This document shows, piece by piece, positions 1 to 58,779 of a DNA stretch of 64,000 bases. The position numbers and the translations under genes are program-made. Where the stretch lies: assembly GCA_008632985.1 (NCBI GenBank), contig QPGO01000021.1, forward strand, positions 186,001-250,000, read 5' to 3'. Under the pieces are notes generated by a model. That model searched no databases. It worked only from the letters and a program-made list of their open reading frames with translations, and was not told where the DNA came from. The stretch comes from Psammoneis japonica (Eukaryota). Positions within the stretch are counted from its first letter, which is position 1, and every line of letters begins with the position of its first letter.

Positions 1-1100
1 GACAAGAGAGTTTCTCAAAACTGCCTTTCCATTTTCCTTGCACTCATGTCAGGCCAAAACATTTGCTGCAGTCCTTTGGGATTGAACACACACAGCATGG
101 CAGATGACACTGATGACAAAGTGGAGGCCTTGGAGGGTTGAGCACTGTTCTTTCAATGCCTTGGTCATCATGCATTTAAACTCTTCATCAGAGTCTGGCA
201 GATGAGCAATTGAAGCCTTGGCAGAGTCCTCAGGATTGTGAGACCTGTGGAAGTGTCTCACAGCAGCAAAGCACATGGAGAGGAAAGATGGCTGTCTGTG
301 GGAAAGGGGCATCAGAAATGACATCTTGTTTGTCACAACATTGAAAAACAGGGCAAAAATGGAGACAGAAGGTCTGAACATGCATTGTCATGGCAACCTG
401 ATCCTGTGGCACAACTTGCATCACAGCATTGCAAAGATTGGCATGGTTCAAACAAATCAAAGAGTTTTGAGGGGAACTCTCACATTCAGGAGCTTCATCC
501 ATGATTGGTCCAACCTGCACAAGGTCATCAGCAAGCATTGCTCAAGGGACAAGGAGATCCTGCTGAATGACCTCATGATGGATGCATGCAACAGCTTCAC
601 TCTTGAGATCTGGGGGCACAAATTCATTGACAAAGATCTTGGGAGCAGGCACCTCATCCAGACATGGGACATTCAGGTGACAGTGGGCATTGGGCAAGTG
701 ACCATGCTGGTTGAATTAACCAGAGTCAACTTGATCTTGGTCGACCTGGTTGCGTGGGAAAAAAATCAATTTCCTGCGCAGAGCTCTGACATGCATCATA
801 GAGTGCGATGGTCGTGCTGATCACAAATCAAGTGAGAAAAACAGCTGTGACATTGACGACGATTCATCAGAGAATCGCAGCCAACACACTCAAAAGACAT
901 CGAAATGTGCTTGTCAAGAGGAAAGGTGACAGCACACTGCTGCTCATGACCCAACGAACTGCTGGCATCGGGACGATCTAACAACCTCAATTGGGACAAT
1001 GGTGCTCGTGCACTGGATCTGAGAGAAAGCAAGACAGAGAGATCATCGGATCTCTCCAACCCATCTACGCTGGTGTGTCTGTCAAGAGAGAGTGCACTCT
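1..1100. other. TpA- and CpG-depleted degenerate repeat remnant, family not identifiable
   Basis: Almost no TA dinucleotides; short overlapping Cys/His-rich ORFs in many frames; same composition as the transposon blocks elsewhere in the window. Confidence 0.45.
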
Positions 1101-1153
1101 CCAAGTCGGATGTCTGCCAGGATGAGATGGACATGGACAGGATTTCCCAAGGT

Positions 1154-3052
1154 TCACTCTTGGAGCACTTCTTGTGACTGCTTCAACCTTTTCTCAGGAG
1201 GCAAGAAAGGACTCTCGTCTTGGGCTGTAGTTGGAAGCGTCGAAGTTTCTGAAACTGATGATGACCAATTGATGGGATTCTGTCGGAGCAGCTCGTACGT
1301 AACACGAAGGATGTCCCGCTCCTCCACACGGGATGCGCCATTGCAGTCCTCCGTGACAAATTCATCTTCCAAAATTTCATCACCGTGTCTCTCGAAGACT
1401 GAATCGATGCACGTCAAGCAAAACTTGCGGTTCTCCCTGCACACATCAGGAGCCTTGGAAATCGCATCCACCAAGTTCATCATGTGGCTTCTCGTGTCCA
1501 CGCATCCAAACAATTTGCCACGGCCGGCTCGGTTGAGAAGGAGAGCCAACTCAATGTCGGGAACGAAGGTGCCAGTGCAGCAGTCTTGGCTTCCAAATGA
1601 CGCGTGGGAGCCATCATGTTCCAAGTGAACGTCACTGCAGAAATCTTGCATTTCAAGATGAAGTGGTGAAAAGTTCGACTTGACTGTAGAGTCGGATTTG
1701 AGCACAGCGCGAAAGGCGTTCTTTCCCTCAAATGCATTTCTGTTGCCACGAAGATCAAGAGTCTCCAAATTGTCGTTCCTCTTGAGTGATTCTGCAAGCT
1801 GACGGCAGGCTGTCTCACCCAAGCGATTGTGTGAAAGGTCAAGGACCTTGAGGGGAGAGTTTAGCTTCAATGCCTTCGTAACGGGCTTCATGGCGGCACC
1901 TTCTTCATCACAGAGCTTGAGACCGGGCAAGCGAAGCTCGACCAAAGTGCTGTTGACAGACAACATGGTGTCCAACGAATGAAGGAATCTGGCTTTCTGC
2001 GTTGTTTCGAATTGCTCGATGCGGACACTCGTGATGGTCTTGTTTGTCTTCAGACCGTTCAATGTGTCAACCCCAATTGGCTCATCTGCCCCTGCATCCT
2101 TGTCACTGTGCCTGTAAGAGAAACTGGTCAGGCTTGAACTGGCAACAGCCGACGAGAGCTTCTGTCCGTTTCCACCATGCAGACGACAGCTTGACAAGAA
2201 ACGTTCACAATCCCAAGAAACGAAAGCCCTGAAATCCACAGCAAGTTCACGAAGACTTGGATTGCAACAGAGCTTGGCCAAGGCCAAGGTTGAAAGTTTA
2301 AATTCGACTCTTCCAGAGGAGCTGAGCTCATCGGGACGGGGATGCAAATGAAGGACTCTTGGGTTTGGCGTTTCGCCCAATGACTCGACAAGCGAATTCA
2401 TGCTGAAATTCATCGTGTCACCCGAGCATTCAAACCCCATCATGTCATGTCCCCCAGATTCTATTTTTATTGTTGGTCCAAACTTGACAGCATGGAGAGA
2501 AGGATGTCGCCTCAACGTGTCACTGAAGGAAAACATGGAGTGCTTGCTGAAGCTTCGTCCCAAACTTGAGCCTTTGCGCATCTCAAATGACTCTAGTTGC
2601 ACAGCAATCCGAAGAACTTCGGCAAGGACTTCAATCGGGATCGTCGTAGATGTGACGAGGGTGTTGAGGTTTGGAAACAAAGACAGAGTCTTGCCAAAGT
2701 CCCACATCTTCTTCGCAGACGACACTTTACTGCAGAGAAACACTGCTCCGATTTGCTGTCGCCTCTCGCTCAGCTGCTTCAAGAACAGCTCAAAGTTTTC
2801 ATCATGCCCAGGAAGCACTGTCTTCTCCATGCTGCTGAAGAGATCTTTCTTTGTAAACTCTGTGTGGTTGTGAAACAACACCTGCGAAAGGGGAGCGACT
2901 GGGCGCGATGCTGCAAGCACTGCACTCGTGGCTTTCGAAACCGACACCGTCGTTTCGAGAGGTTCTGCTGGAGCTTCCATGATGTGGCTGGTCACAAGAG
3001 TTGTGGGTGCAACAAGAAGTTTGATCAATGACAGTGAACGCTTGCTGCTCAT
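1154..3052 (-). CDS. Leucine-rich repeat (RNI-like) protein, TpA-depleted, possibly decaying
   Basis: 632-aa ORF with LRR motifs (LKVLDLSHNRLG, LETLDLRGN, LVELRL); I count only 2 Tyr. Confidence 0.7.
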   Translation of the reverse strand: MSSKRSLSLIKLLVAPTTLVTSHIMEAPAEPLETTVSVSKATSAVLAASRPVAPLSQVLFHNHTEFTKKDLFSSMEKTVLPGHDENFELFLKQLSERRQQIGAVFLCSKVSSAKKMWDFGKTLSLFPNLNTLVTSTTIPIEVLAEVLRIAVQLESFEMRKGSSLGRSFSKHSMFSFSDTLRRHPSLHAVKFGPTIKIESGGHDMMGFECSGDTMNFSMNSLVESLGETPNPRVLHLHPRPDELSSSGRVEFKLSTLALAKLCCNPSLRELAVDFRAFVSWDCERFLSSCRLHGGNGQKLSSAVASSSLTSFSYRHSDKDAGADEPIGVDTLNGLKTNKTITSVRIEQFETTQKARFLHSLDTMLSVNSTLVELRLPGLKLCDEEGAAMKPVTKALKLNSPLKVLDLSHNRLGETACRQLAESLKRNDNLETLDLRGNRNAFEGKNAFRAVLKSDSTVKSNFSPLHLEMQDFCSDVHLEHDGSHASFGSQDCCTGTFVPDIELALLLNRAGRGKLFGCVDTRSHMMNLVDAISKAPDVCRENRKFCLTCIDSVFERHGDEILEDEFVTEDCNGASRVEERDILRVTYELLRQNPINWSSSVSETSTLPTTAQDESPFLPPEKRLKQSQEVLQE

Positions 3053-3111
3053 CGCTCATCGATTTATTCAAGAGAGCGAAGGGAAAACAATGATGTGATG
3101 ATGTGATTGCT

Positions 3112-3286
3112 TGAACAAATTACCCTGCAGTTGTTTGCTAGAGAGCAAAGTTATAGAAAACATTGCAACATCGTGCTGCCATTTCCAAGATTGTGACTAG
3201 ATCTCGGATGGAGTCTTCCCGTTCCGAATCGCCAAATGTGCAGTTCTAAATGCTAGTTCCGATGAGACCACATGGCAAATTCTTCA
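3112..3286 (-). repeat. 3' LTR (TpA-mutated copy)
   Basis: Aligns without gaps to 9858-10032 with 16 substitutions. Confidence 0.95.
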
Positions 3287-3297
3287 GTCCCCTCAAG
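3287..3297 (-). promoter_or_regulatory. Polypurine tract
   Basis: Minus strand TTGAGGGGAC directly precedes the 3' LTR. Confidence 0.65.
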
Positions 3298-3551
3298 TCG
3301 TTGAAGCAGACACTGAATCGGCTTGATCCAATTTACACTCCGACAGTTTTAGCCACAACTGTGTGACAAGGAAACCCTGACAACCTGCTGAAACCCAAAT
3401 TGGGAAAGGGTGCCGGTGTGACTGTGCCCCTCCAAGAAGCGCATGGAAGGAATGTGAGCCAACATGCCCGCTGGTGCGAGCTCCCATGCTCGCTGGATGT
3501 AAGGAGAAACAGAAAAAGGAGCAGTCGAAGGAGCGACTGTTCATTCTTCTT

Positions 3552-6500
3552 TCATCCTTTATCATCAAACATGTCGTGTAGTGTCACACCAATGAGGCCA
3601 TCTCGTTTGACACCACCGCACATGATCTTGGTCGCAAGATCAGCTGGATTGCATTCCGATCTAATGTGTCCGGCAAGGGACTCACCCACAGCTGCCGACT
3701 CCCTGACGGCATGGCAGCACACAGAGTTAGACTTCTTCTTCAAAGTCGACTCTGGGCTTTGGGTGTTGTGGACAACTGCCATGTTGTCCCCATGAATGCA
3801 TGATGGTCCGCTGAGCGGGACTCCCATCATCCTGAGTTTGTGCCTTGGGCCTCGCAAAGCTTCCATGCCTTGCTTCACAGCCACAAACTCAGCACCAAAG
3901 ACTGAAGTCTCAATGGTGCTCTGGCGCTTGGAGAACCAGGCGACTGGTGCCATGTTCAAATGGACAAAATGACCAGTGCGGGAGCGTCTCGTCACTTTGT
4001 CATTCGCATGATCTGAATCTACGAATGGGCGTGGATCAATGTCCTTGCCCAGAGCTTCTGGTGCATTCGGTGGAATCGCCTCCTCTACGTTCCCGTAAAA
4101 TGCCTGCCAATCGCATTCCTTAAAGTCAGACATGTGACATCCGGGCACGTCGGATCGAATGCTGACGTTGCGCCATGTCTGTTCTTGAGGCATCCACGCA
4201 CATGCAGGACAGCGTCGAGATGACCTTCTCCAGGCATGGCGAGGAATGAGGCGAGTTCGGATGTCTCCACTGTGAGGTCGACTCGTCCAAGTTCCACTGT
4301 CCAGCGCAGGACTCCCACCTGCGACTGGTAAAATCAAGCCTGCTCTGCATCGAGCTTTGGCGCAATGTCGAGTTCCGGTCGACAGTCGCACGGAAACGGG
4401 GCCGTTGCCTTGCGTGGCAACGTCCATCCAGGAGCAGTCTCATCTGGACACCCCTCGACATTCTTGATGGCCTGTTGGATGTGCTTGCTGGAGCTCATGC
4501 TCCATGCGCAGACACCATTCAGCATTTGCACTTCACGGATTTTCGCCCCGAGGTGCATTTCAGGGTCACCGATGGATCCGGGTTTCATCTTGAAGCACCG
4601 GTCCAATTCCTTGAGCGCTGACGTAGCGTCGTGGTGTGCCATGAGCACGTCGTCTGCACACAACAGTGCATGGGCACAGCATCAGAATGCATCATCCGGT
4701 CGGACCTGTGCCTTCATCCACACATCTGGATCAGCCAGACACGGTTCCCACCCACGTGCAAGATGCCAAGTGGTTCCTGAAGGATGCACCTGCACTCTTC
4801 AATCCGTACAATGCGCGCTTGACTGTGGCACGCTTCCCAGCATTGGGTCCAAACTCAGGTCCTAGAGTTGCAGTGATCTTCTTGCTGTTAGGTGCGGTCA
4901 CACAGGCATTCTCAATGTCCGCAGCCTTAACCTCCAAGTCATTTAGAGCCGCCAGAGCAAAGGCAATCCTTGCACTTTCGCGGGAGATGACGCTTGCATG
5001 CGTCAGAGTCGCTGGAGGTTCAGCGGTGTGTCCCCCTGCAACATGACGAGCCTTCCGCTTGAAGTCTTGTAGTTTGACATCGAAGACCAAGTGGCAGCGA
5101 ACATGCTGGTAACCCACGAGCTCCTCGTCATCGTCGACAATCTCAAAGGCTTTTGAAACAACATCGATCTCCTTGTCTGTGGCATCCTGCCACAAGCGGT
5201 TGCCGTCAGCCTTGTCGATCTCGACTGCCTCTTCATGGGTCTTGGGAATGCGCACCCCGCACTTATGAGTGCGCTTGTGATGTCACTTGTTCACAGCGGC
5301 TACAATCTGCTGACGTTTCTTGAAGGTAAAGGGAACCCACCAGGCAAAAGCTGGCTCGTCCTCTGTGGATCTGGCCCTGGCACACTCTGCCATTTCCACT
5401 GGGTTGGATTCCTTCAAGTCAGACAGTCGTTCCCAAGATGTGGATCCGTCTTTCCATTGTGCGCAAAGATGCCAGCCTTTGGCAGTCTTGCGCATGGATC
5501 GACGTCCCCTGCTGTCTTGGATGAAGGCATCCTCCTTCTTGATTGTATGTCCGTCAGTCTTGTGATCAACGATTGCATCTAGTGACAAGCACTGGTTGCC
5601 TTCATTGTCGCACTGCGCAAACATGTTCTCAGCGATGACATTCGCCGCGAATTCTGCTTCCTGTCCATCAGGAAACTCGACCTCACACACACGAGTGTCA
5701 AGTGTCGGGTTTGGGTTGGCCCGTCCGGCAGGTGTGCCATCCGGATTGAGCTTGCGTCGCTTCACTGCCCCAGTCTGTTCCATGTCCCCGTGGGGCAGCA
5801 GCACTTCTGCATTGACACATTGATCGTAGGCTTCGTCTGGGGTGTCACCCTCATCGGAGGCACTGGACGGAACATCCTGTTCCTCGTCATCCTCGTGCAG
5901 TTCGAAGGTGGGAGCAATTGCGTCAGGGTCATCAAAGTCCCCGACGGTCACACCCGGGCCCAGCTTGACCTCTGTCAACCTGTCAAACTTTTCACGCAAT
6001 GCAAGGTGCGTCTTGTGTTCCTGCTCCTCGGGCGTTAGTGCCCTGCAAGACGAGCGATGGACGACCTGTCTGTTCTCCTTGAGCATCTTGGCCATCACAG
6101 CTGGGCCTGCATCCCTGCTCGGGCCCGGATGTCGCCCCAGGACTTCCTTGTCCTCGGGAAATGAGACTGCCGTGTCTCGAAACATGATCCAGTCGTGCCG
6201 GCCGAGTTCACATGTGTGCGAGATGTCAGCCGTCTGACCGGACACTGCGGTTTCTGGGACTTCACCGTCAAGCTCATGGATGTTTCGAGCGGTGTTAGAC
6301 CCAATGAGGCCTTCCAGTTCCAGGCAATCATCCCACAAGCATTTTGGGGCCTGTGACTTAACCATCTTACGCCCAACGCCTCGCTTGAGTTCGCGAATTG
6401 CGCCCTCTGCGGTGTTAGACCAAGGGGCATGTGGTTCAGTTTGTCTTGCATGGCAATCGGCCTCCCTGGCTTTCTTGCTAAATTGCCCCATTGTCTCTTC

Positions 6501-7676
6501 TCTCACCCCGTCTGCTGGCATGGTGTGGGGCACGCCTTCTTGCGCGAAGAGCAACGACAACGCCTCGTGCGCTGGACGTTTTGACTTCAATGGACAAGCG
6601 CGCACCCATCCATTGGACATTGCGAACACTTGCGTGCACACATTCCCTCGCCTGGACTTGACAGAGGAGAACATGGTGTTGGAGCACATCTCCTTTGAGA
6701 CACGCCTGCATCGCAGTTGTCGGTCATTGGTGCGGAAACGTCGTGACAGCGTAGGATGTAGAACTGTCCTGGCTCCACGCTGTGTCGCAACCTTGAGAGT
6801 GTTCTGAGCATCCTTGAGGCTGATGGACCAGTTCTCGGCCAAACGTTCAGCGTCAACCTTGAAGCTGCGCTTTGTCGTCTTGAGCGAAGACAGTTTCATG
6901 GATGCCAGCAGCAAACGGTCATTGCATGCATTGGAAACATCACGCAACGGCTGATTCCGCAGAGCGTCTGAGGTCTCTTGAGCTGCAGTGCGTGAGAGCT
7001 TCGTGCTCATAATGTGCACATGAGGACGCGCATCATCCCCGGTCTCATGCACTCTGCCAAGAGCATCTGTCATGGCTTCTTCCCCAGCGTGGAAGTCGGA
7101 GGAGGCGGGGTCCCATTCAGGGGACTCATGCGTGAGTTCGCACACGCTCCCGTCTTGGGCCGCATCCTCATGTTGAGCTAAAGTCGGGACACTGGAGGGG
7201 AAGCAGCTCGAGACTCCCTCCAGGTCTAAAGGTGCAGTTAATGAAGTGCCATTGGCGTCCTTGGCGACGATCGCATGTTCCTTGTCGTTGGGCTTTGTCA
7301 GCAGAAACTTCGGTTTTAATGAAAGTTCCACGTCATTCAGCCACAACTGCATTGGACACAGCAAGTTGTGCTCAAGGTGTGGCACATGGACTGCTTGGTG
7401 GACAACCAAGACGTGTGGGTGGCCCGTCTGAGGATCTGTGTCAGTGGCAGCTCCACTGACTGTACGCAGGCGCTTGCTGGCACCCAAAGTTGGGTCGCAC
7501 CCTTCCATGTCTGCTGGCCTGTCATGGTCAAGCAAAATTAAAGCGTGCTTGCCTGGTGCGCTCATGTCTGCATGACTGTCAACATCCGTGCGAGACTCTT
7601 CTTGCGACGGTCCTCCAACCTTTGTCTGGGTCAAGCATGAGGTCTGCAACGGACTGAGCCGCATGATGGCCACCAT
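3552..7676 (-). pseudogene. pol: Copia pol (protease, integrase, RT, RNase H), frameshifted
   Basis: DSHAD protease motif; TEPHAPWSNTAEGAIRELK integrase; KARHVAGGH, ADIENAC, KRALYGLKSAG and LLCADD (YVDD) RT; FVDSDHANDKVTRRSRTG and NPADLATK RNase H; spread over ORFs 5283-7676, 4731-5255, 4334-4663, 4085-4318 and 3552-4427. Confidence 0.92.
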
Positions 7677-7682
7677 TGGCTG

Positions 7683-9172
7683 TCACTTCCTGTGGCATCC
7701 AGCCTTGGGGACATGCTTGCGAGCAGCCTCGCGAATCAACGCCTTGTTGTTTCGGTTCCATTCCTGCTTGGCAGCCGGAGGCTTCATTGGCTCTTCAGTC
7801 TCAGATTCACCACCACCTTCATCGGATGAATCGTCCATTTGAGCTGAGATGGCCGCGACCGTCTTGGTCAGAGCTTTGATCTGCTTGGCGTTGCCGGCCG
7901 TCGTGGCCTTGCCACTCTTTGTGTTGTCACGTGTGTCGCGCAGCGACTTGAGCTTCTTCCCAGCCTGGGGAGAAAGCTTGCTGCACTCTTTGGGAGGGTG
8001 GCACTCATCCTCCACGTCATCGGCATGAATGATGGTTTCTCGTTTGCACTTCCCAGCCTTGAGAGCCGCAACACGAAGACGTTTCGCGTCGTTGTCCGGC
8101 TTGGACTGCTTGATAAAATCCTTAAATGGGACAATGCAAGCATCAAAATCGTTGCGCAACGTTGTGCTGGCCACAATCTGCGTCTTGACTGAGTCAAGCG
8201 ACGAGTCCTTGACACTTGCAAGGAGGTGGCGGACCTTGGATCGTGCATCGATCCCTGCATAACCACACTCGGTAAGCCGTCCAGAATCGCGTGTTGTTCG
8301 ACATGAACTCGCACGCAGCGCTCGAAATTCCAGTTGCGCTTTTCCCCGTGGCAGGACAGACTGGCGAGCTTCCTTTCGGCAGCGTTCGCCAGGTCATCTG
8401 CATTGTTGGGGCCCAAGAAATGATTGCAGAGGTTCAGGCAGGCCGTCCTGCCGTCCTGGCGCCTCTGGGCTGGCTTGACATAAGCCCAACTAGCATGTTC
8501 ACGCGTGATGCCGGCTGTGATCTCCCACACTTTGATGTTGTCGGCCGTGAACGTCTCGGCAGGTTGAGGGTTGTTCCCAGCAGTGAGATGGGGAGCCCTC
8601 GCGATCATCTCCTCGATCGGGTCGTTGTAGTTGGTGGCCGGGTCGTCGGCCTCGGCGGTTGCTTCCTGGTTCTCGCGGATGACGTGCGACAGTGGCATCT
8701 TCGTTTCGCCTCGGCATGCCCGCAGATGCTCCTGAATCGACTCGATCGTCTTCGGCCAGTCCTTCTTGATGATCGTCGGCAGTGTTTCGGGCAGTTCGTA
8801 GGTCTCTTCCGTGGGACAGAAGTGGCGGTGGCCTTGCACTCGTGCAAGGTTGATGTCAACAGCTCGCAACGTTCGCGACATGCGCTCGCAGTGACGAGCC
8901 GCATGCGCGGTGAGCTTGAGATTCATCTCGGTGCGCAAAGGAACTGACGTCCCTAGGTTGGGTTGGACGTTCCCACCTGCCGGCGGATTGCCTGCCGCAG
9001 CCCCTCCTGGGCGACGAATGTCCTCACATGAGGTCTCGACCTCGTGGTCGTCGAGGTGATGCAGTTCATCGACTGAGTCGATTCCCTGCTCATCGGTTAA
9101 AGCCGCGGCTGCCTGCGCGGTAAACCCCAGTCAGGTGCAGGCAGCACGCATCGCTGCTGCGACTGCTGCCAT
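7683..9172 (-). pseudogene. gag: Copia gag, frameshifted
   Basis: ORFs 7868-8938 and 7683-8174 with CoDi gag-like segments (LSHVIRE, LSCHGEKRNWNFE); lies upstream of pol; probable ATG at 9172. Confidence 0.75.
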
Positions 9173-9840
9173 GGTTGATGGTTACAAACGGTGTGTTTTA
9201 CGTGTCTCGCAAACTTTTGTGTGGTTGTGCACGAAAAGTGAGTGAGGTGCGCGAACTTCGTATCGCTTTTTCGCCGTTGGATAAAAGTAATCGTTATAAC
9301 TACGATCAACGTGTCTAGAGATAGCGGTTTATATTTAATCCTCCTGGATTAATATCTCTGATGGGATTCACATATAACGGCTACTCTTACAATCTACGTG
9401 ATCGTATAATGCATGTGCCGATCATCGGCGACGTGCTCGTTCCCTGGTCTACATTGACCAATAGTGAGGTTAAATATATAATTTATTAATTATATCGCGT
9501 TTACATATTCAACTTGGATATGTATATATGCTCACTCGGCGATTTCAAATCGCCACGCAGTTGCCTCCGAGATAACTTCGGTATGGAAATGGCGTCCCAG
9601 ATCCAATTTTGCGCTCTGTGTCCGCGTATTTACGCTCATAAAACACATCAGGACAGTCGATACTTTTGTTATCCATAAGTATTACGGCCGAACTAGCCCT
9701 GGGAGTTACATACTCGTCAAGCACGAACGTCGTCTCACGTTCGTCGATGTTTTCATGTCATCTCTGACAAGTTGGAACGAATGGTCGTATTGCGAGTCGT
9801 TCGCAAGCGTTGCAATCATTACCACTGTCGTTACGTACGG

Positions 9841-9857
9841 CGATGGCTCTGATAAAG
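9841..9857 (-). promoter_or_regulatory. Primer-binding site, tRNA-iMet-like
   Basis: Minus strand CTTTATCAGAGCCATCG follows the 5' LTR; shares TATCAGAGCC with canonical TGGTATCAGAGCC. Confidence 0.65.
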
Positions 9858-10032
9858 TGAATAAATTACCCTGTAGTCGCTTGCTAGAGAGTAAAGTTAT
9901 AGAAAACGTTGTAACATCGTGCTACTATTTCTAAGATTGTGACTAGATCTCGGATGGAGTCTTCCCGTTCCGAATCGCCAAATATACAGTTCTAAATACT
10001 AATTCCGATAAGACCACATGGTAAATTCTTCA
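9858..10032 (-). repeat. 5' LTR (TpA-retaining copy)
   Basis: TGAATAAATT...TTCTTCA, direct repeat of 3112-3286. Confidence 0.95.
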
Positions 10033-10394
10033 TGCTGTCGATCGCGGCGCAAGATAGAAAAGCATCGACAAGTAAGTACAGTACTTGGATGGCGTAGAAT
10101 TCTACGGAGCTCTTATGCTTTTCTTTTTTAGCTTGCTGTGCTAAGTGTGCGGTCCGATCCGCCCGCCCGCCCGCCTCGCCTAATCCGTCCCGCATTTCAA
10201 ATTGCTACTGTACACTTTAGGAAGTTCTAAGTAGTTTACGACAACTTAGTCAACAGCTCAGGTCTAAAACAAGTTACTTGTTCCATAATATAGCTGGAGT
10301 CATGACTTCTTATGCGCCCCTGTGGTCCCCAGAGAGAGAGAACCGACAACGAGTGAATCCTAGCCCAGAGTAGTTCCAAACCACGCTGGCATGC

Positions 10395-13300
10395 TCATTC
10401 ATCAAACTCGAATTCGCTGTCGCTGGGTTCATCCAAAGTAGCTCGACGTGGATGAGGAGGCGCCTTTGCCACCGAACTTCTGCGGCGGGGGCGCCTGGCA
10501 ATACTTGGTAGTGCCGAATCGCTCTCGTCGCTGGACGACAATTCAATAATTTCTGTATTCTTGGGCGGCTGCTTCCTTTCTGGAGCCTTCTTTGTAGGTG
10601 CGCTCTTCCTTTTCGTCGCCTTTTTCTTCCTGCCGTCCTTGGATGCAGCACGTTTGCGCTTTGTGGTCGTCGCCGCCTTTGGCTTTTTGGATGACGAGAT
10701 CCAGCCCGTCGACTCGGGAGTCCTTTGCTTGGTTGTAGACTTGGGTGTAGCCTTTGCCTTCTTCTTTCGAAAGGGGAGCCGAACAAAGACTTTAGGATCA
10801 GGAGATGACAGCAATCGATAAGCTGCGGGGCCGAGTTGCAGATACATTGTTGCGAAGCTGCAGAGGGCAACAGGGAAAGTGTGAGACGCATTGAATCATA
10901 TCGAGTATCGAAATCGGGAAGTTGAGACCAAGCGTACCCTTTGCCATTGTAGACAACGTTGGGATGAAAAATATCTTCCAGCATGAGGGCGACAATGATT
11001 CGACTGCATTCTTCGCCGTTGACATCTTGTCCAGGTGGATTCCGTTGAACGCTAAGACAGAGAGTTCGACAGTATAAGAGTTAGAATTCTGACATACCAG
11101 TACCGCACGACAGGCAGCGACCACGCAAGGTTCTTACCATTCTACAGCATTTTCTGGTTTGGTCCTCCACTCCTTGACAAGCATGGGTATGGTTTGGTTT
11201 TCGCCAATGCCAATTTTGTATTGCAGCAACTGCGTCACAGTCTTGGCATGAGCGCCGACATCCCGATTCTCCGTCGTGAGCTCCAATAAGGAATCAAAGT
11301 CTTCACTATCCGGTTCACCCAACGTCTTGAGAATGATCGCTCGACAGACAGCATCGTTCCCCGACGCCTGTGAGTAGCGCACCATGGACCAAAAGGATAG
11401 TTCGCTATTGTCACCGTGAATCATTTCCAACATTCGAGTCACGTCCTTTGTTGAATAGTAAAGAATACAATCGGCGGGTTTGCCATCCCGACCGGCTCTT
11501 CCACTTTCCTGATAGTAGGCTTCCAGCGTCTTGCTAAGACTAAGAAGCAAGTAGAGAACGAAAAAGTGCCACACGTCAGAGTTACATCACGCAGAACAAA
11601 CGTAAAAACACTATCAACAAGACCACAAGCATACCTATGATGCAAGACAAACCGCACATCGGGCTTGTTGATTCCCAATCCAAACGCAATCGTAGCCACA
11701 ACGACTTGAGTCTCGTTGCGCATCCACGAATGATGAATCATCTCCTTGACGCTGTCCTGGACCGAGCTGTGATAGGCCCGGGCGACAATGCCACGGTCAC
11801 ACAGCTTGTCCGCCACCGCGTCAGCCTCTTTGCGTGAAAACGTATAGATAATACCGGCATTGGTGGGATGCTTCTCCTTGATGAATGACGCCATTTCATC
11901 AACAACCTTGTCCTTACCGTCCACCTTGGGAACGACCGAGTAGTGAAGGTTGGGGCGGTTGGCTGATGTTTGAAAACGCAACAAGAAGGATCGTGTAAGT
12001 GACAAGAATGAATCTCAGAAAAATCAACAAGACCTTTTGACTTGACTTACCCGTGCTTCGAAAGAATTGATAGTTGCGTCCAAGCTTCAAAATGTTGCAC
12101 ACATCGTGTCGGACTCGATCCGACGCGGTGGCCGTGACGGCAATGAGGGGAATGCTGGGAAACATGCTCTTGAGAATGCCGAGACGAGTATAGTCTGGCC
12201 TAAAGTCATGACCATCCTGAGAGGCACAATGGCACTCGTCAATGACGAGCCTTCCGAGTCGATTGTCATTGTACAGTTTTTGCAATTCACTCTTGAGTCG
12301 TCCGCTCTTGTACACTTTTTCGGGAGTGACAAAGACGAGACAAATCCCCGAATGACGATCCCGTACCAAATTCCATCGCCTTGCGTGTTCGGAATTGCCT
12401 AGTTTGGACGTAAACTCAACGGCTGATCCGGGTGAAAAGCCATTCATTTGATCGACTTGATCTTGAATGAGCGAAAGGAGTGGCGACACGACCAGCGTCA
12501 CTTTGCGTTCGGGTCCACAGCCTTCCAAGAGTGCCGGCAATTGATAACAGAGCGACTTCCCTCCTCCAGTGCGCATAATGACAAAGGCGTCTCTACCGCT
12601 CATGGTGCAATTGATAATGTCCCGTTGTTGGCCACGAAACGATTGGATGCGAAAAACATTTTGAAGGACTTCCTGAACTTGACCCGACCAGGGATAGTTA
12701 TCTTGAGGTGGCAATGAATGCTGTGTTTCGTCTTGGTGGTCTTGTGGAATCCGAGCGACTGTACAAGCAGTACGGTCATGTCGTTGCTGTTGTTGTGGAG
12801 GTGGAAGAGAATGCAACGAGTCCATGGTAGCAAAACTGCTGCTTCTGGGAGTCGTAGAATCGCTGTTGCTAGGAGTCACGTCGGATTTTGCAGCAGATGA
12901 AGTAAAGTACTGATCCAGCGTTGCGTTCTTTCTACTGCTTTGTCTCTTGTTGGAAGAGCCATGCGTAATTTCCAGTTGACCCATCATTCCGGGTGCGCCG
13001 ATTGATGGAGGCCGGAGGGGTGATGGAACCACGTCTTCGTCATAAAAAGCTTCGATATCCCGTGCTTCATCATCATGTTGTTGTTGCTGCTGTGTTGCTA
13101 CGGGATCCGTCAGGTGTTCATCATCGTTACACGTCATGGCTGGGTCTGTCAAGAACTCGTCTGTATGACTCGTCATGGCCAATCGAGTCGACGGACTGCT
13201 GCTCATGACGACGGGGGATGTTGCTTCGTGCTCGTCCGAACTTACAGCCGCACCAACTTCATCCTCTGGCTGCTGCTGCTGTACAAGAACGTTTTGTTGT

Positions 13301-13479: not shown

Positions 13480-13664
13480 TCTGCTGCAACTAACAGATCT
13501 TATGGCCTCTATAGAATACGACTCAGTCTATGATGTGACGTGAAGGCAAGTCTACGAATACAAACGAGAGCAACAGCAACCGCAAGGCCGATGATGTGTC
13601 ATTTCCAGTTTTTCTTTCTGCCGGCGACGCACTCCTGAGCGATTTGAATTCCACGCGCGCTTCA

Positions 13665-14767
13665 GGCATTTTTTTACCTGGTGTGGGCAGCAGGTTTTGA
13701 TTAACTCGACTCAAGCGAAGCGAGAGTCAACTCGCAAAAGTAACCCGGATGTTAAAGTGGGGAGAACAAACAACTCTGCACAAGCACCCATCACCAAAGG
13801 CATCTCCTCTCAAAAGGACAAGGAACAACATTTGAAGCAAAGTGCAACATGCAGACAAGGAGCTTGTGCCAAAACAGAGTGTCTGGCCACAGCACCAGTG
13901 GCTGCAACAAAAGGCAAAGCAGCAAGAAGCAAAAAAGATGCACAGAGAGCCAGAGGAAGAGGGGCAAGAGCCGGGGTGCAGAGAGGAGAGTGGTGTGTGC
14001 TGTGCACTGAAGAACTGGGTGGAAGGGGTGAATAAAATGCCAAAAAGGGAAAATTGTGAGACTGTTTTGGGCACCAAAAGCAAGCAGCAGTTGAGAGATG
14101 CTCTGCAGCGTGTTGTGCTGTGACCCAGCAGCAAGAGAGCTGGCTCCTGCCCCCCAGCTGGCCCCAGCCAAGAAGGCCGAAGGTTGTCCGCAGCCAAGCA
14201 GCACCCCACAAAGTGTTTTCAATGCCATTTTGGGGTGTGTGACAGCTGCGCCAGTTGAGATTTGCCTCGCAATTTGGTGCAAAACAAAGTGTGGCGTGCA
14301 GACAAGGAGAGTTTGTGCAGAACCAGTGTGCCCAGCTGCAGCTCTGATGGCTGCAAGAGGCAAAGCAAAAGAAGCCAGGATGGCACCACATGCCAGCTCT
14401 CATAGAGAGCCCTGCTGCATGCTGCATCTTGAAGAAACAGGTGGAAGGGATGAACAAGATGCCAAAGAGAAACTTGTGAGACGGCTTTGGGTGCCAAAAG
14501 CACAAGCAGCTGAGATGCTCTACACAGCACAACCCAGCAAGAGCTCATTGCCACCACAGCAAGCCAGCTGAGAAACTCTGCATGTTGTCCATGACCAAGC
14601 AACACCTTGCAAACTGCAAAGTGTTCTCAGCACCACTTTGGGGTTTGGCCCAGTTGTTGTTGAGAGCTGCCTCACAAAGAACTGCTGCTTGGATGCTTGT
14701 TGCAGATCTGGAAAATCATCTCTTTGCAGCTTTGGCAAGGAGCTCCCCAGCATGATGATCATGAACA

Positions 14768-14801
<34 letters not shown>

Positions 14802-15452
14802 AAAAGCAGTGCTCTGTGTGTTGGAGCAGCAAGAAGCCAGAGCAACAACAAAAAGAAAAGACAAAAAGCACAGACAAGTTCACAGGCATGCAGCATCTGA
14901 GGTGGCCAGAAATGATCTCCGGCACATGCCAAAGCCCAAGGTGAGCAGCAGCAGAAAGCAGAAGCAGGGCAAGGAAACAAAGGCTTGCTTTTGTGAGGAT
15001 GGCATGAGCAAAGTCAAGAAGCCACAGTGCCAAGCTTTTCGGATGAATTGCACAATTTTTGTCAAGAAATCAAAAACAAACAGGAAAATCGGCGAAAGCG
15101 TCATTGAGACATCATGCCGTAAAGTGAGACACCGGCGGCACGCGTCATTGTGGTGCTGCAGTTTGTTGCGTGGTGCCTGCGAAGCACACATGTCCATCGA
15201 TGCATGTCGGCAATCCAAACTGAAAATTGACCCATCACCTTTCTGTCTTTCTTCACAATTGTGGATGTCACTTTGTGGCGTGCATGGGGGAGATTTGCAG
15301 CACACATAGAAGCAGAATGACCCCACAACATCAGCAGCTCTTTATGTGCACTACAAACTTTATAGCGCACATGGGGCTGCTTGCTTAAAGGATGACCGTC
15401 TGCGTCAGCAACGTCGTCATGTACGCTGACCCACACCATTTGACGACCTGCC
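13665..15452. mobile_element. Non-autonomous TIR element, copy 1 of tandem dimer (Merlin-like)
   Basis: Ends GGCA-N10-TGGTGTGGG and CCCACACCA-N10-TGCC; dimer flanked by 8-bp TSD GCGCTTCA (13657-13664, 17252-17259); superfamily inferred from termini only. Confidence 0.8.
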
Positions 15453-15459
15453 TTCGCTG

Positions 15460-17251
15460 GGCATTTTTTCACCTGGTGTGGGCAGCAGGTTTTGATTAAC
15501 TCGACTCGAGCGAAGCGAGAGTCAACTTGCAAAAGCAACCCGGATGTCAAAGTGGGGAGAACAAACAACTCTGCACAAGCACCCATCACCAAAGGCATCT
15601 CCTCTCAAAAGGACAAGGAACAACATTTGAAGCAAAGTGCAACATGCAGACAAGGAGCTTGTGCCAAAACAGAGTGTCTGGCCACAGCACCAGTGGCTGC
15701 AACAAAAGGCAAAGCAGCAAGAAGCAAAAAAGATGCACAGAGAGCCAGAAGAGAAGAGGGGCAAGAGCCGGGGTGCAGAGAGGAGAGTGGTGTGTGCTGT
15801 GCACTGAAGAACTGGGTGGAAGCGGTGAATGAAATGCCAAAAAGGGAAAATTGTGAGACTGTTTTGGGCACCAAAAGCAAGCAGCAGTTGAGAGATGCTC
15901 TGCAGCGTGTTGTGCTGTGACCCAGCAGCAAGAGAGCTGGCTGCTGCCCCCCAGCTGGCCCCAGCCAAGAAGGCCGAAGGTTGTCCGCAGCCAAGCAGCC
16001 CCCCCCCAAAGTGTTTTCAATGCCATTTTGGGGTGTGTGACAGCTGCGCCAGTTGAGATTTGCCTCGCAATTTGGTGCAAAACAAAGTGTGGCGTGCAGA
16101 CAAGGAGAGTTTGTGCAGAACCAGTGTGTCCAGCTACAGCTCTGATGGCTGCAAGAGGCAAAGCAAAAGAAGCCAGGATGGCACCACATGCCAGCTCTCA
16201 CAGAGAGCCCTGCTGCATGCTGCATCTTGAAGAAACAGGTGGAAGGGATGAACAAGATGCCAAAAGAGAAACTTGTGAGACGGCTTTGGGTGCCAAAAGC
16301 ACAAGCAGCTGAGATGCTCTACACAGCACAACCCAGCAAGAGCTCATTGCCACCACAGCAAGCCAGCTGAGAAACTCTGCATGTTGTCCATGACCAAGCA
16401 ACACCTTGCAAGCTGCAAAGTGTTCTCAGCACCACTTTGGGGTTTGGCCCAGTTGTTGTTGAGAGCTGCCTCACAAAGAACTGCTGCTTTGATGCTTGTT
16501 GCAGATCTGGAAAATCATCTCTTTGCAGCTTTGGCAAGGAGCTCCCCAGCATGATGATCATGAACAAAAGCAGCAGCAGCAGCAGCAGCAGCAGCAAAAA
16601 AGCAGTGCTCTGTGTGTTGGAGCAGCAAGAAGCCAGAGCAACAACAAAAAGAAAAGACAAAAAGCACAGACAAGTTCACAGGCATGCAGCATCTGAGGTG
16701 GCCAGAAATGATCTCCAGCACGTGCCAAAGCCCAAGGTGAGCAGCAGCAGAAAGCAGAAGCAGGGCAAGGAAACAAAGGCTTGCTTTTGTGAGGATGGCA
16801 TGAGCAAAGTCAAGAAGCCACAGCGCCAAGCTTTTCGGATGAATTGCACAATTTTTGTTAAGAAATCAAAAACAAACAGGAAAATCGGCGAAAGCGTCAT
16901 TGAGACATCATGCCGTAAAGTGAGACACCGGCGGCACGCATCATTGTGGTGCTGCAGTTTGTTGCGTGGTGCCTGCGAAGCATACATATCCATCGATGTA
17001 TGTCGGTAATCCAAACTGAAAATTGACCCATTACCTTTCTGTCTTTCTTCATAATTGTGGATGTCACTTTATAGCGTACATAGGGGAGATTTGTAGCGTA
17101 CATAGAAGCAGAATGACCCTATAACGTCAGCAGCTCTTTATGTACGCTATAAACTTTATAGCGTACATAGGGCTACTTACTTAAAGGATGACCGTCTGCG
17201 TCAGCAACGTCGTTATGTTGTACGCTAACCCACACCATTTGACGACCTGCC
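15460..17251. mobile_element. Non-autonomous TIR element, copy 2 of tandem dimer (Merlin-like)
   Basis: About 1.79-kb direct repeat of 13665-15452, separated by a 7-nt spacer TTCGCTG. Confidence 0.8.
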
Positions 17252-17482: not shown

Positions 17483-20400
17483 ATGACGAAAATGAATCCC
17501 CTTTCCAAGATTATCAAGCATGATAAGGATGCTGACAGCGATGAATCATCGGATGACAAGGAAAAGCGTTCGATGAATCCCTTTACAAAGCTCATCAAGA
17601 AGGAGAAGGATGAGGACGACTCGGGTGATGATGATGACGAAAAGGAAAAGAATCTTTTTCAAACCATGAATCCCTTTACCAAGCTCAAGAAGCATGAGGA
17701 CGATGACGACGACTCGAATGATGATGACAAGAAGGAGGGAAAAAGTCTCATGAAGAATCCCCTTTCGAAACTAAGTATAAAAAAGGATGCAAAGGATGAG
17801 GACGACTCGGGTGATGACGAAGACGAAAAGGACAAGAATCTTTTTCAAACCATGAATCCATTTACCAAGCTCAAGAAGCATGAAGACGACGACTCCGACT
17901 CGAATGATGGTGACAAGAAGGAGGAAAAACGTCTCATGAAGAATCCTATTTCGAAGTTAAATATCAAAAAGGATGATGAATCCACACCGCTCATCGGCAG
18001 AATGCTGCCCCACCGCAAACCTCGCCACTCGGTTCTAGCCACCATGGAACACAAGGAGGGCAACAAGGCGTGGCGGTCATGGGATGTCAAGATGCCCCCG
18101 GCAAAGAAGACCATGGTGGGTGGCAAGCTCGTTCCCAATCCCGGAGAAGCTCTGACAGGCTTTATGCGTCAGAAACCGAGTCGTGTTGTGATTGAAGTCG
18201 TACAGCTTGAAGGCAGTGATAGCGATTCGGACAATGAAGAAAAGGTGTTGCAAGAGGGTCTTTTGCGAGGCAAGAGCACCACGCATGTCAAGGACGAGGC
18301 CATTGATGAAGATGTCGTCATGACCATGCGTATTCTCAGGCCCTCGGATGAAGTGGAGGAGGACGAAAAAGAGAAGGGAGCCTCCATTGCACTGGACCCA
18401 AAAGACAAAGCACTCAAGCCCGTGACCTTTCCCGGTTGGTGCGATGTGTATCATTTTGATCCCGACGATGTTGAACTCCTCAGTTACTCTGGTATGCACG
18501 CCGTCTTGAAGCTGGGTCGCGGTGCCGAGACCATGGTGCGGCAGCTCAATTTTGCCAGCAAGGAAGAGTGCGATTCCTTTTGTCAAGTTGTTGAGTCGCT
18601 TGGCAAACTCGAGGATGATCGGATGCAACGCAAGATTGAATATTTCTTGGAACAAAACGACGGAACCTACAAGGCGGGAGAAGCTATTAACATTTTGGTG
18701 GAGATTGTTTCCGGAGTGCGATTGCCCATTGCGGACATTACCAGTACGGACGCGTACTGTGTCGTGTATTTGGGACGAAAGGAAATTCACCGGACAAAGT
18801 ATATTTCCAGCACGTGAGTAGCGTTGTTGTTGTGCAGTGAACTGAGAAACTACTAGGACTAGCCTGTGCTGACACGCGTTCTGAATCGCTTTCTGTCTAG
18901 AATCAATCCCATTTGGACCATTGACAACGGCTCGTTGTTTTTGATCCAGACGACTCCCGAAGATTTCTTTGGCAGCAGCAGTGGTCTTACGATATCGGTG
19001 CGTGACTATGATGCCATGGGTAAGAACGATGTTTTGGGTAAAGTTATTGTCGACCAGGACGATTTGATTGAAGGCACGGGAGAGCGCATCGAGCACAAGC
19101 TCATGTTGGATCAAGAGTTCAAGGACGCCAAGGACGCACGTCTGGTGTTGCGCTATCGTCGAGCGACGCCCGATGACATGGACTTTATGGAGCGCTATGC
19201 TGAACTAAAGATGAAGAAGAAGGGCATTGTCATGGGTGCCGTTGGTGCCGTGGCTGCCGTGGCGGAGGACAAACCAATTGTCGGAGCCTACGCGGACGAA
19301 GCCTATGTGGCGCCCAGAGCCTTTCGCGTCAAGCTGCTGCAGCGTGAAACGAAAAAGGACAAGGAAGGGAATAGACTGGTAAGTGCTCTTTACGCTTTGT
19401 ACCGAATGCGCTGTTTCTTGAACATGCATTGATTCTTGTAATGTTGATGCTGGTATTCGCAGTTCCGTGTAAAACCAGAACCCGATCCTAGTAGGCCGGA
19501 AGAAACCAAGTGGTTAACCAACGCTGAAATCGACAAGGAGGCCCAGAAGCCATCTACGAATTGGATGGAGGTTGGTTCCGGAGGCCTTGGAAAGCTTTTC
19601 TTTGAGGTGATTAGCTGTGACGGGCTACCCAACTTGGACGACGGGGTTACCAGCGGAAAGACGGATGCTTTTGTCAGCCTGATTTTTGAAGACGCAATCG
19701 TTAATACAGACGTCATCAATGATACGTTGAAACCCCGTTGGCCTCCTTGGACGCAGCGTGCATTCATCTTTAACGTGCTTCACCCATCGTCTCAGGTGCT
19801 GCTCGGTGTTTTTGATTTTGACGACACGTCCTCGTTGGATGGTCATGATCCCGTTGGAAGGGTTTCCATTGACGTGACCAACCTGCGGCCGTCTACAGAA
19901 TATGTCATGGAATATGACCTTTACACGAGCGCTCTCGTCTCCAAGCGTGAGTCATTCGGCTCTGTAAAGGTTCGCATGCGTGTCGAATGGGAGGATCAGA
20001 GGAAGGCGCTCATGGCGGCGTTCAAGCTTCCTCCAGACATTTATGTCAATGTGCCCACGCATCGAGACTTTCAGTGTGCTCGCTACACTTCTTTTGGAGA
20101 GGTAAGTGAATTCTTCCGTGTCGGCGTTAATTCAGCTTGAGTCAGTATTACCTGATTGTTACTTCCCTTCCCATCTTTAGTGTAACGTGGAGGAGTACGA
20201 CACGGAGGTACTGACGTCGTACATTGAAGAGATTCGACAGTATGAGGCTCTTCAATACATGGTCAGGGACGCGTTGTTCACTGTGCTGTTGTGGCGTGGG
20301 CACTTACCAGTCACATTCTGGGTACCTACTCTCCCTCTTCTTCCGGCCGATCCCGAGAATCCAAAGAGTTTTCTTCGTCGACTCTTCAAACCCAAGAAGC

Positions 20401-26925: not shown

Positions 26926-27429
26926 TCACTCTGCCAGGGGCGAATCAGGATAGTCCATCAGATGTTGCTCCAATTGTTGTTCTGTTTTCTGTAACGCAGC
27001 TTCCGCCAATTCTTCCAATCGATCCGCTTCATCCGACGCTGCCAAGGCCTTGGTGACGACAGATCCCGCGTCAAGGTTGGATCTTGCCGCTTCATCGGCA
27101 CGCGTCAGCTGCTCCATGCTAATGGGTTGATCACGTTTCTTGAATTCCTCGTCTATTTCCTTGGCACTGTTTGCGGCTGCTTGGGCTTCTTTTTCGGCCT
27201 TTTCACTCAGTTCATTGGCAGCTTTGCGAGCTTCCAGCGCTTGGGCCCACAAGTCCTCGGCCTTTTCGACTGCCTCCAACACATCCTCCTCGGAAACCAG
27301 AAAACACCGTGTTGGGTGCAGTGATGAGTGTCGTGCGTTAGCGACATTTATTCCAAAGCCACCGACCAATTGAAAATTACAAACGACGATGAAGACAAGC
27401 GTCCAACAATAATAAGTTTGTCTCGACAT
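26926..27429 (-). CDS. Hypothetical coiled-coil protein with signal/transit peptide
   Basis: 167-aa ATG ORF; hydrophobic N-terminus; Ala/Glu-rich helix; normal composition. Confidence 0.7.
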   Translation of the reverse strand: MSRQTYYCWTLVFIVVCNFQLVGGFGINVANARHSSLHPTRCFLVSEEDVLEAVEKAEDLWAQALEARKAANELSEKAEKEAQAAANSAKEIDEEFKKRDQPISMEQLTRADEAARSNLDAGSVVTKALAASDEADRLEELAEAALQKTEQQLEQHLMDYPDSPLAE

Positions 27430-27527
27430 GCTGGTAATCGGGATGACAGCAATAATCTAAGTGACTATCGTGAAAATATGGCGTATTTTCCCGCCGCTGT
27501 GCGGTCTCAATTCCAAATTCCAGCCTC

Positions 27528-47435: not shown

Positions 47436-47696
47436 GTGGAAGCTTCCTTCCATCCTGCTCCTACAGTATGATCGATAGTAGCCACCCCTTCTGACGTCAT
47501 GAGTCAGTCATGATGTTGCTGCCACGCACAGTCACGCACAGTGAAATGCGAACTCGACATCCAACATTGCATCTCTCTTTCAAAAAAACCAAAGAAAATG
47601 AAAAAGGCGAGGGTAGTCGAACAGCAATAAAACAAACGACGAAGAGAAAGGTCAATTGCTATTGTTTACCATCATTCGACTGGCGTTGTTTTGCCA

Positions 47697-50270: not shown

Positions 50271-50299
50271 GATTTCTTCTGTGTTTGTCTCACAATGAG

Positions 50300-53200: not shown

Positions 53201-53650
53201 TCTGCAGAAAACCAGTGGTGTTTTGAAGACTGGGGGTCATGCTGAAGACCATGAATGAGAGTGGGGCACATTTTCCTTTGTGTGCAACTTCAGTTCAAAA
53301 TTTGTGTGCTGTTTTGTTGCAGCTGTTTTTTGAAGGTTGCATTTGTTTTCACAAGTGCCGCACATTCTGTTTGTCAATGAACACACAACTTGCTTGCCAG
53401 TGCTGCCTTGTTTTGCAGCTTCTTTGTTCCCTTCAGCTTGACCCTTCTGATGACATCCACCAGTGTCTCAAAGATCTCTTGGCAGAGATTTTTCTGAGAG
53501 AGTGCAAAATGAAAGCTCAAATGACAAGAGAGCACAGCAACAAATCCCACAATTGCCTTTCACCCTTTGGCCACCACACCCAATGCCAGCCTGGAAGGCC
53601 ATGAGTTGCTTGACAAAGCAAAAAAATGACTTGACACAAATGACAAGCAA
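50300..53650 (-). pseudogene. Possible decayed non-LTR (LINE) retroelement
   Basis: KTEDWHLGSWV resembles the FKYLGS RT motif; otherwise too mutated to read. Confidence 0.3.
52196..52378. other. Assembly gap
   Basis: Run of N. Confidence 1.
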
Positions 53651-58773: not shown

Positions 58774-58779
58774 ATCATC

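Follow-up and report, generated by a model that had tools for sequence, protein, structure and literature searches.

In fungi, repeat-induced point mutation (RIP) changes C to T mainly at CpA, creating TpA and premature stop codons, and it requires duplicated DNA and a sexual cycle. In Leptosphaeria, leakage of RIP mutates single-copy effector genes embedded in repeat-rich AT-blocks, and this leakage has been proposed to speed the diversification of genes for interactions with other organisms (Rouxel et al. 2011, PMC3105345). A mutator acting on TpA has been demonstrated by mutation accumulation in the chlorarachniophyte Bigelowiella natans, where two integrated viral regions gained 231 de novo mutations, 230 of them A>G or T>C and every one of these at a TpA site, and where the integrated giant-virus region is single copy; adenine deamination in DNA is suggested, with an ADAT2-like deaminase proposed as the agent, and TpA-poor clusters and coding sequences are enriched for transposon domains, the coding sequences for reverse-transcriptase and DDE domains, some of the Pfam families being "of likely host origin" (Mettrop et al., bioRxiv 10.64898/2026.01.13.699255). 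A locus of comparable character is described here in a 64,000-nucleotide stretch of Psammoneis japonica (contig QPGO01000021.1, positions 186,001 to 250,000), called the window, in which a leucine-rich repeat (LRR) gene and an adjacent Copia retrotransposon lie in one tract depleted of TA dinucleotides.

With moderate confidence, we read this locus as a single-copy LRR gene enclosed in a regional tract of TpA hypermutation that it shares with the Copia element, the process being of the same kind as that of B. natans. The word "diatom" does not occur in the main text of the B. natans preprint (bioRxiv 10.64898/2026.01.13.699255); a full-text literature search, with most subscription journals outside its reach, returned no report of TpA hypermutation in diatoms, and a literature search on A-to-G genome defence gave nothing relevant. 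The features of the locus are listed below, TA o/e being the ratio of observed to expected TA and LTR standing for long terminal repeat.

1..9230, TA-depleted tract, TA o/e about 0.16 overall, from a 250-base profile, TA positions and segmentation
1..740, left repeat in which TA and CG are both lost (first CG at 742); summed depth 85-199 in bins 1-800
809..1150, repeated segment directly 3' of the LRR gene, TA-poor with CG kept; four contigs with loose ends at 809, depth 299 in bin 801-1200
1154..3052, minus strand, predicted ribonuclease-inhibitor-type LRR gene of 632 amino acids; single copy, 14 TA, 2 Tyr, TGA stop
3053..3111, 59-base spacer from the LRR ATG to the Copia 3' LTR; the TGCT with which it ends (3108-3111) is one copy of the target-site duplication
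3112..3286, minus strand, Copia 3' LTR (TG...CA), with 7 TA left, 12 having been lost relative to the 19 of the 5' LTR
3287..9857, minus strand, Copia internal region with pieces of the pol and gag reading frames at 3552-9173 and the gag ATG at 9173
about 9260-9845, minus strand, spared TA-rich leader of Copia, about 600 bases
9858..10032, minus strand, Copia 5' LTR, unmutated, 19 TA
10033..10036, second TGCT copy of the target-site duplication, where host DNA with normal TA begins

Depths and copy numbers are taken from contigs of run X1 with a likeness of at least 80%; 1228 contigs were aligned over positions 1-12000 and their depth was summed in 400-base bins, runs X2 and X3 carrying next to none of the stretch.

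The TA-poor tract and its LRR gene

The open reading frame (ORF) of the LRR gene holds 2 Tyr among its 632 residues (0.3%), together with 20 His and 16 Cys, and 14 TA are found where base composition predicts 119 (o/e 0.12). CpG is retained (91 CG, o/e 0.77), and both TG (1.33) and CA (1.38) are raised on the sense strand. Eight window ORFs with clear Pfam domains (DEAD, GST, JmjC/Cupin_8, mTERF, EngA/Der, HSF and two Methyltransf_24) provide the host baseline: their TA o/e is 0.39-0.74 (mean 0.51, standard deviation 0.12), their CG o/e 0.76-1.05 and their Tyr content 1.4-3.7%, so that the LRR ORF stands 3.4 standard deviations below them in TA and inside their range in CG. The original prediction had described an ORF between two repeats with few Tyr, few TA and CpG retained, and other host genes as normal in Tyr and TA; this description is borne out, the summed contig depth being 64.3 over most of the ORF, 85-299 to its left and 411-1431 to its right.

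TA is missing evenly from one end of the ORF to the other and at each of the three codon positions. Among TA-containing codons, those for Tyr have suffered most (3.2 vs 28.1 per 1000 codons), as is also the case in the dead Copia element, and in a codon-position comparison of TG and CA gains the gene resembles this element, the host-gene baselines varying widely. Over the same 1.9 kb the remaining five frames carry 7-32 stops each and the chance of 632 open codons is about 2e-10; the ORF is therefore no chance by-product of stop-poor DNA.

Examined in 250-base steps, TA o/e stays at 0.0-0.38 from position 1 to about 9230 and then jumps to 1.0-1.3. The right edge lies between 9199, up to which TA is sparse, and 9261, from which it is dense; the left edge lies beyond the start of the window, and the tract measures at least 9.2 kb. 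CpG is near normal in the tract from 742 onward. The left repeat at 1-740, whose ORFs gave no Pfam hit, probably represents tract DNA that is older or methylated. The segment at 809-1150 was considered as a diverged LTR and rejected, having no similarity to the Copia LTR or leader.

The TA that survive are biased in context: ATA or TAT accounts for 2 of the 14 in the LRR gene and 11 of the 67 elsewhere in the tract, against 161 of 335 in the host ORFs (Fisher p = 0.014 and 8e-7, respectively), and the mutator seems to read more than TpA itself. Over the whole of 1-9230 these contexts make up 13 of 81 surviving TA, compared with 47-48% in host DNA, and a relative enrichment is seen in GTAG, GTAA, TTAA, TTAG and CTAG. 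The first 6 kb also contain 19 ORFs of at least 100 amino acids, overlapping in several frames; long overlapping ORFs arise in such tracts because TAA and TAG are nearly absent.

No Pfam LRR model passes its cut-off on the LRR ORF, LRR_1 reaching E = 0.0017 with 18.5 bits under a cut-off of 20.6. A phmmer scan of 1.84 billion cluster representatives gave 6312 hits at E of at most 0.001, mostly to residues 330-460, and 863 hits to LRR proteins at E of at most 1e-10, and among these representatives no relative exceeds 37% identity. Three relatives align over most of the ORF, namely P0015 (query residues 208-599), P0018 (136-380) and P0055 (112-531); in multiple alignments they are 27-33% identical to it, up to the C-terminus, and none of the three has a Pfam hit. 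A structure model built from the four-sequence alignment contains about 12 strand-helix units at residues about 84-433, with a mean predicted local distance difference test score (pLDDT) of 56.6 overall and block means of 56-93 over residues about 90-440 except for dips at 200-212 and 277-289. Its best Foldseek matches are ribonuclease inhibitor (2bex, 1dfj, 1a4y), NLRP-type LRRs, RanGAP and CARMIL, at E of 5e-9 and weaker. In the Atlas the look-alikes are eukaryotic LRR_6 and LRR_TMOD-LMOD clusters, several of the LRR_6 clusters being commonest in Bacillariophyta, and the recognition score of the ORF is 2096, where most real families reach 2300. On the model, the product is predicted to be a ribonuclease-inhibitor-type LRR protein of a small family. 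It is like ribonuclease inhibitor, RanGAP, NLRP and CARMIL in the alternating strand-helix repeats of its predicted fold, and differs from them in a conserved C-terminal part (..LLLNRAGR.. to ..ERD...Y..) of no known family, which is modelled with low confidence.

This family is not Tyr-poor by nature, since P0015, P0018 and P0055 have 2.3-3.0% Tyr. The TA comparison with these relatives is one of protein Tyr content only; two metagenome scans for their DNA, with alignment A3 and then with P0160, gave pattern matches and no confirmed relative. Measured against the mean of the relatives, the ORF differs by -2.4 points in Tyr, -1.4 in Ile, +1.4 in His, +1.1 in Met, +1.1 in Thr and +2.6 in Ser, which are the directions predicted for loss of TA from TAY, ATA and TTA codons, and its Tyr poverty appears to be derived within the family. 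A further sign that had been proposed, LDLSHN in place of LDLSYN, holds in part: the 150 best LRR hits contain 341 LDLSxN words, with Asn at x in 44 of them, Gly in 42, Tyr in 41, His in 37 and Ser in 33. Tyr is indeed common there, but His is about as common and the word is not diagnostic; P0055, the only close relative with an LDLSxN repeat, has Ser at x.

Selection or codon usage might also keep such a gene poor in TA and Tyr without any mutator, and the general under-representation of TA in all host ORFs of the window (o/e about 0.5) fits with it. However, the relatives are normal in Tyr, the loss is equal at the three codon positions and extends to the non-coding flanks and the neighbouring LTR, and the surviving TA share the context bias of the transposon; an intrinsic composition is the least probable of the explanations that we consider.

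The Copia element as a record of the change

The element at 3112-10032 has LTRs of 175 bases, 91% identical, and the 4-base TGCT duplication on both sides; it is inserted 59 bp upstream of the LRR ATG, in the orientation of the LRR gene. Its polyprotein is collinear (tblastn, pairwise) with residues 52-1881 of P0284, a relative of 1881 amino acids; PF07727 is carried by relatives of the element, and its reverse transcriptase (RT) piece scores 29.1 bits, under the cut-off of 31.6. Integrase preceding RT is the hallmark order of Copia. As judged from its LTRs, target duplication and polyprotein, the element is a complete Ty1/copia LTR retrotransposon. A purine-rich tract beside 3287 and a word at 9846-9857 resembling a primer-binding site are presumed from Copia anatomy, and the RT catalytic motif YVDD reads CADD in this copy. 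A tRNA scan of the window for the Copia primer tRNA found no tRNA gene.

By the mechanism of reverse transcription, the two LTRs of one insertion are identical at integration. In this element they now differ at 16 of 175 positions, all by transitions. At 12 of the 16 the 5' LTR has TA and the 3' LTR has TG (5) or CA (7), the reverse being found at none, and only 38 of the 175 positions fall in a TA (P = 8e-6 against random placement). The loss of TA thus took place in the chromosome once the element had inserted, and of the two ends of the element only the one facing the LRR gene was affected. If our reading is correct, dating of insertions by LTR divergence is biased, because those 12 differences come from the mutator.

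The internal region records the same change. At the 53 positions where P0284, the closest intact relative, has Tyr, the element has Cys at 20, His at 15, Phe at 6, Tyr at 4 and other residues at 8, and it keeps 19 of the 22 Trp. The changes are TpA transitions that give TpG or CpA, on both strands; Cys and His outcomes show no clustering along the element (19 runs, 18.2 expected), and being interleaved they indicate that both strands were hit many times. Among the 34 best-supported differences listed between this element and other copies in run X1, six are adjacent TG/CA doubles and four are TA versus TG or CA; together they form the pattern left when one ancestral TA is converted separately in each of several copies.

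TA o/e is 0.17-0.26 in the Copia ORFs, 0.12 in the LRR gene and 0.39-0.74 in the host ORFs. The same depth of depletion, the uniform loss, the predicted composition shifts and the shared context bias tie the LRR gene to the process recorded in Copia, and from these we infer that one process hit both. In the gene itself, composition points to the same TpA>TpG and TpA>CpA transitions, and an enzyme would lie behind the loss of TpA.

Such changes might also be made at the level of RNA or cDNA, by an ADAR-like activity or a deaminase on single-stranded cDNA followed by reverse transcription, in which case the LRR ORF would be a retrocopy that carries the edits. The ORF is intronless and adjoins a retroelement, and the spared leader and 5' LTR recall the editing gradients along retroviral cDNA. 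ADAR, moreover, prefers U before the edited A (bioRxiv 10.64898/2026.01.13.699255). Against this, the B. natans mutations appeared in the chromosomes of clonal lines (bioRxiv 10.64898/2026.01.13.699255). At this locus both strands are hit about equally and in an interleaved manner, as seen from TG and CA in the gene and from the runs in Copia; the flanks of the ORF are depleted too, and the unequal LTRs of a single insertion point to change after integration, which makes editing before insertion highly unlikely.

How the gene came to be hit

One X1 contig with a depth of 64.3 spans 823-3216 and is the sole contig covering the LRR gene; the depth of the unique flanks is 60.1-64.1. Summed depth is 85-299 in bins 1-1200, 64.3 in bins 1201-2800 and 411-1431 in bins 3201-10000. 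The gene is therefore single copy and Copia multicopy. This contradicts the suggestion, made from the sequence at the outset, that the mutator targets multicopy families (64.3 over the gene, 60.1 over its flank), and so does a pair of Methyltransf_24 paralogs (47691-48524 and 61471-62340, 85% identical in DNA and 14 kb apart) with an ordinary spectrum of change: they flank the largest tract of the window, neither is TA-depleted, and their 127 differences comprise 14 of TA type, 22 of CpG type, 33 other transitions and 58 transversions.

A homology-dependent process resembling RIP, acting on repeats and on the LRR gene as a member of a multicopy family, is accordingly very improbable. LRR genes are often multicopy and this one sits between repeats, but a single contig of at least 80% likeness covers it at single-copy depth, no relative closer than 37% identity is found among the 1.84 billion cluster representatives, the 85% identical paralogs are unaffected and the most repeated part of Copia, namely its 5' LTR and leader, is spared; the giant-virus target region of B. 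natans is also single copy (bioRxiv 10.64898/2026.01.13.699255).

The position of the gene offers a better account. It is enclosed, with the repeated segment at 809-1150 and the older repeat on its 3' side and Copia on its 5' side. Tract edges in the window are sharp (at most 300 bases), and TA is normal in host ORFs that lie about 0.5 kb away from other tracts. The sharp edges, the untouched host genes and the untouched paralog pair together argue that the LRR gene was hit by enclosure, and not by spreading or through a multicopy state. A mutator spreading into neighbouring genes had been foreseen, with the LRR gene as a bystander; the gene does share one TA-poor tract with Copia, and it is collateral in a tract that bears the fingerprint of the transposon, but there is no decaying spill-over, and the idea of a bystander is refined to enclosure in a regionally targeted tract.

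In the mechanism that we propose, a TpA-specific transition process at the DNA level, yielding TpG on one strand and CpA on the other, would have removed about four fifths of the TA in the tract. The tract covers the LRR gene and most of Copia, including the 3' LTR, and ends sharply 30-90 bp upstream of the gag start. The gene would have been recoded as collateral of a regionally targeted mutator, being enclosed in the targeted domain, and the domain may be recognised as silent or methylated chromatin or through a transcription-polar process.

Repeated segments stand tight on both sides of the gene (809-1150, and 3112 onward) and the exact LRR protein is absent from a collection of 15 billion sequences, as could be expected if the ORF were cargo of a mobile element or an integrated virus and were targeted as foreign DNA; in B. 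natans the mutator does target integrated viruses (bioRxiv 10.64898/2026.01.13.699255). This origin is quite improbable for a single-copy gene whose closest counterparts in the Atlas are LRR_6 clusters of eukaryotes, a number of which are commonest in Bacillariophyta. The Copia target duplication, in addition, shows that the 59-base spacer was once contiguous with the ordinary host DNA at 10033 onward. Viral contigs scanned by pattern, using the family alignment, yielded no confirmed relative, which is weak evidence.

A number of observations weigh against enclosure in a hypermutated domain as a full account. First, at 28-33% identity the protein shows no clear Tyr>His or Tyr>Cys pattern relative to its relatives: in the 30 alignment columns where at least one of three relatives has Tyr, the ORF has Tyr in 2, Cys in 2, His in 1, Phe in 6 and other residues in 19. 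Likewise, the excess of TG and CA over the host mean is about 30, which covers only about two thirds of the TA deficit of about 47 in the gene. Part of the Copia depletion may have been inherited from the parent copy rather than acquired in place. Run X1 may itself be the source of the window assembly, and it is then not independent for sequence, although still informative on copy number. The edge of the tract nearly coincides with the start of Copia coding sequence, and of two copies of one LTR sequence the 3' copy was changed while the 5' copy escaped, so that a plain chromatin domain is insufficient as an explanation; the leader and 5' LTR, about 770 bases together, remain intact though as repeated as the rest of the element. 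Finally, islands of normal TA at 55.5-56.1 kb and 58.2-58.8 kb lie inside another tract, and enclosure is thus not sufficient for a hit.

Everything downstream of the edge within Copia, on the strand common to the element and the LRR gene, has been hit. A barrier at the promoter of the element, or a process coupled to transcription or read-through, would be consistent with such polarity. A more far-reaching version, in which the mutator is polar with transposon transcription, starting just upstream of the gag start and passing through the 3' LTR into same-strand DNA downstream, and in which the LRR gene stayed under selection meanwhile, so that host genes behind an insertion would be recoded at each TpA and never truncated, and the defence of diatoms against transposons would also act as a stop-free diversifier of LRR-type recognition genes, is distinctly unlikely.

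The protein gives some indication of such selection, which is also the one hint that TA loss may diversify LRR proteins, as was suggested at the outset. Its only two Tyr, Y313 and Y586, are family-invariant: of the three columns with Tyr in all three relatives the ORF keeps two, compared with 4 of 53 in the dead Copia, and the probability of keeping at least two of three at the Copia rate is about 0.02-0.03 (post-hoc arithmetic). On the other hand, Copia sits where the promoter should be, which counts against function. The open frame cannot decide the matter. TA loss had been expected seldom to create stops, and the genetic code confirms it in a stricter form, since TA>TG or CA can never make an in-frame stop (TAY becomes CAY or TGY, NTA becomes NTG or NCA, and NNT|A becomes NNC|A or NNT|G); an open frame is therefore no proof that the LRR gene functions.

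Methylated CpG decays by transitions. All six differences listed between the window and the X1 contig over 823-3216 (899, 1337, 2168, 2177, 2394 and 2601) are transitions between CpG and CpA, and none is at TpA; the unique flanks (1-847 and 9967-12000) have no listed difference. The six transitions suggest that the LRR gene region is CpG-methylated, and that CpG decay is under way in the younger, CpG-retaining part of the tract.

These differences bear on the possibility that the LRR gene was itself a primary target, silenced and methylated by Copia or by the older repeats on its left, and is now a dying pseudogene that stays open only because the mutator, which would act on any silent locus, makes no stops. 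The hypermutable giant-virus region of B. natans is transcriptionally silent (bioRxiv 10.64898/2026.01.13.699255), and the suggested CpG methylation, the strong depletion of Tyr codons as in the dead Copia and the Atlas score of 2096, below 2300, all agree with such a fate. The ORF, however, is full length and collinear with its relatives to the C-terminus with no frameshift, both family-invariant Tyr are retained, and three of the five listed differences inside it are synonymous. We regard this possibility as unlikely, though of some weight; it departs from collateral recoding by enclosure, which we continue to prefer, in cause only and not in mechanism.

Other tracts and comparison with known systems

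The window is nuclear DNA of a diatom-like alga: the best named relatives of its EngA ORF are all from diatoms (Ditylum, Thalassiosira, Skeletonema, Chaetoceros and others), at 57-63% identity, with further relatives up to 69%. An exact look-up of six window ORFs in the 15-billion-sequence protein collection found 0 of 6. About half of the 64 kb is TA-poor by a crude segmentation. Further tracts with sharp edges lie at 13600-16900, 27700-31300 and 49000-60900, with TA o/e of 0.0-0.15, CpG of 0.0-0.4 and TG and CA o/e up to 2.2; the ORFs within these tracts contain 0 Tyr and 6.5-7.3% Cys, and none of them matches a Pfam family. The ORF at 27328-28356, which crosses a tract edge, was considered as a second host gene and rejected, as neither Pfam nor the Atlas gives a hit and its recognition score is low; it is probably no gene.

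The largest tract contains an assembly gap of 183 N at 52196-52378 and a 2.6-kb tandem duplication (56160-58777 and 58778-61395) that is 100% identical in sampled 300-base stretches. Each unit of the latter consists of about 2 kb depleted in TA and CG and about 0.6 kb with normal TA; the duplication is either younger than the depletion or an assembly artefact. A 1.8-kb tandem repeat at 13665-17000, 97-100% identical, is likewise depleted in TA and CG, and tandem arrays with units of 186 bases (17597-17968) and 180 bases (24059-24599) are also present.

If our reading is correct, TpA hypermutation, known so far from one chlorarachniophyte preprint, also shapes a diatom-like genome and may be widespread in protists. 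Host genes enclosed by transposons could then be recoded wholesale, here with the loss of about 47 TA sites and most tyrosines and with the frame left open. In genomes of this kind an open frame would be no evidence of function, and gene finders would call long spurious ORFs in all frames. The locus, where one LTR was hit and the other spared and the edge lies inside the element, would offer a natural test of how the mutator is aimed.

Leakage of fungal RIP resembles the situation described here in that a defence mutator aimed at transposons also mutates embedded single-copy genes. The direction is opposite, however: TA is lost in this locus, TG and CA are gained and no stops are created. Nor is there dependence on duplication, since the single-copy gene is hit and the 85% identical pair, the repeated 5' LTR and the leader are not. 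ADAR hyper-editing and APOBEC3 also leave deaminase-type clusters of transitions in selfish elements, and ADAR shares the preference for U before A (bioRxiv 10.64898/2026.01.13.699255); conversely, these enzymes act on RNA or single-stranded cDNA and in a strand-asymmetric way, whereas both strands are changed here, after integration, and a non-mobile host gene is included.

The likeness is greatest with B. natans. Both cases show TpA>TpG and TpA>CpA transitions on both strands in discrete regions that include single-copy DNA, and both have clusters poor in TpA and rich in CpA and TpG. They differ in host, a diatom-like stramenopile here and a chlorarachniophyte there, and in targets, which in our locus are an LTR retrotransposon, tandem repeats and one identifiable host gene. 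The depletion is far deeper here (TA o/e 0.02-0.17) than in the B. natans giant-virus region (Rho_TpA 0.45), and the evidence is a fossil signature, that from B. natans consisting of de novo mutations. Compared with the B. natans account, the tract edge inside an element, the unequal LTRs of one insertion and the bias against surviving ATA and TAT contexts are new. We take the process to be a recently described kind of mutator, found in a new lineage and with new anatomical detail.

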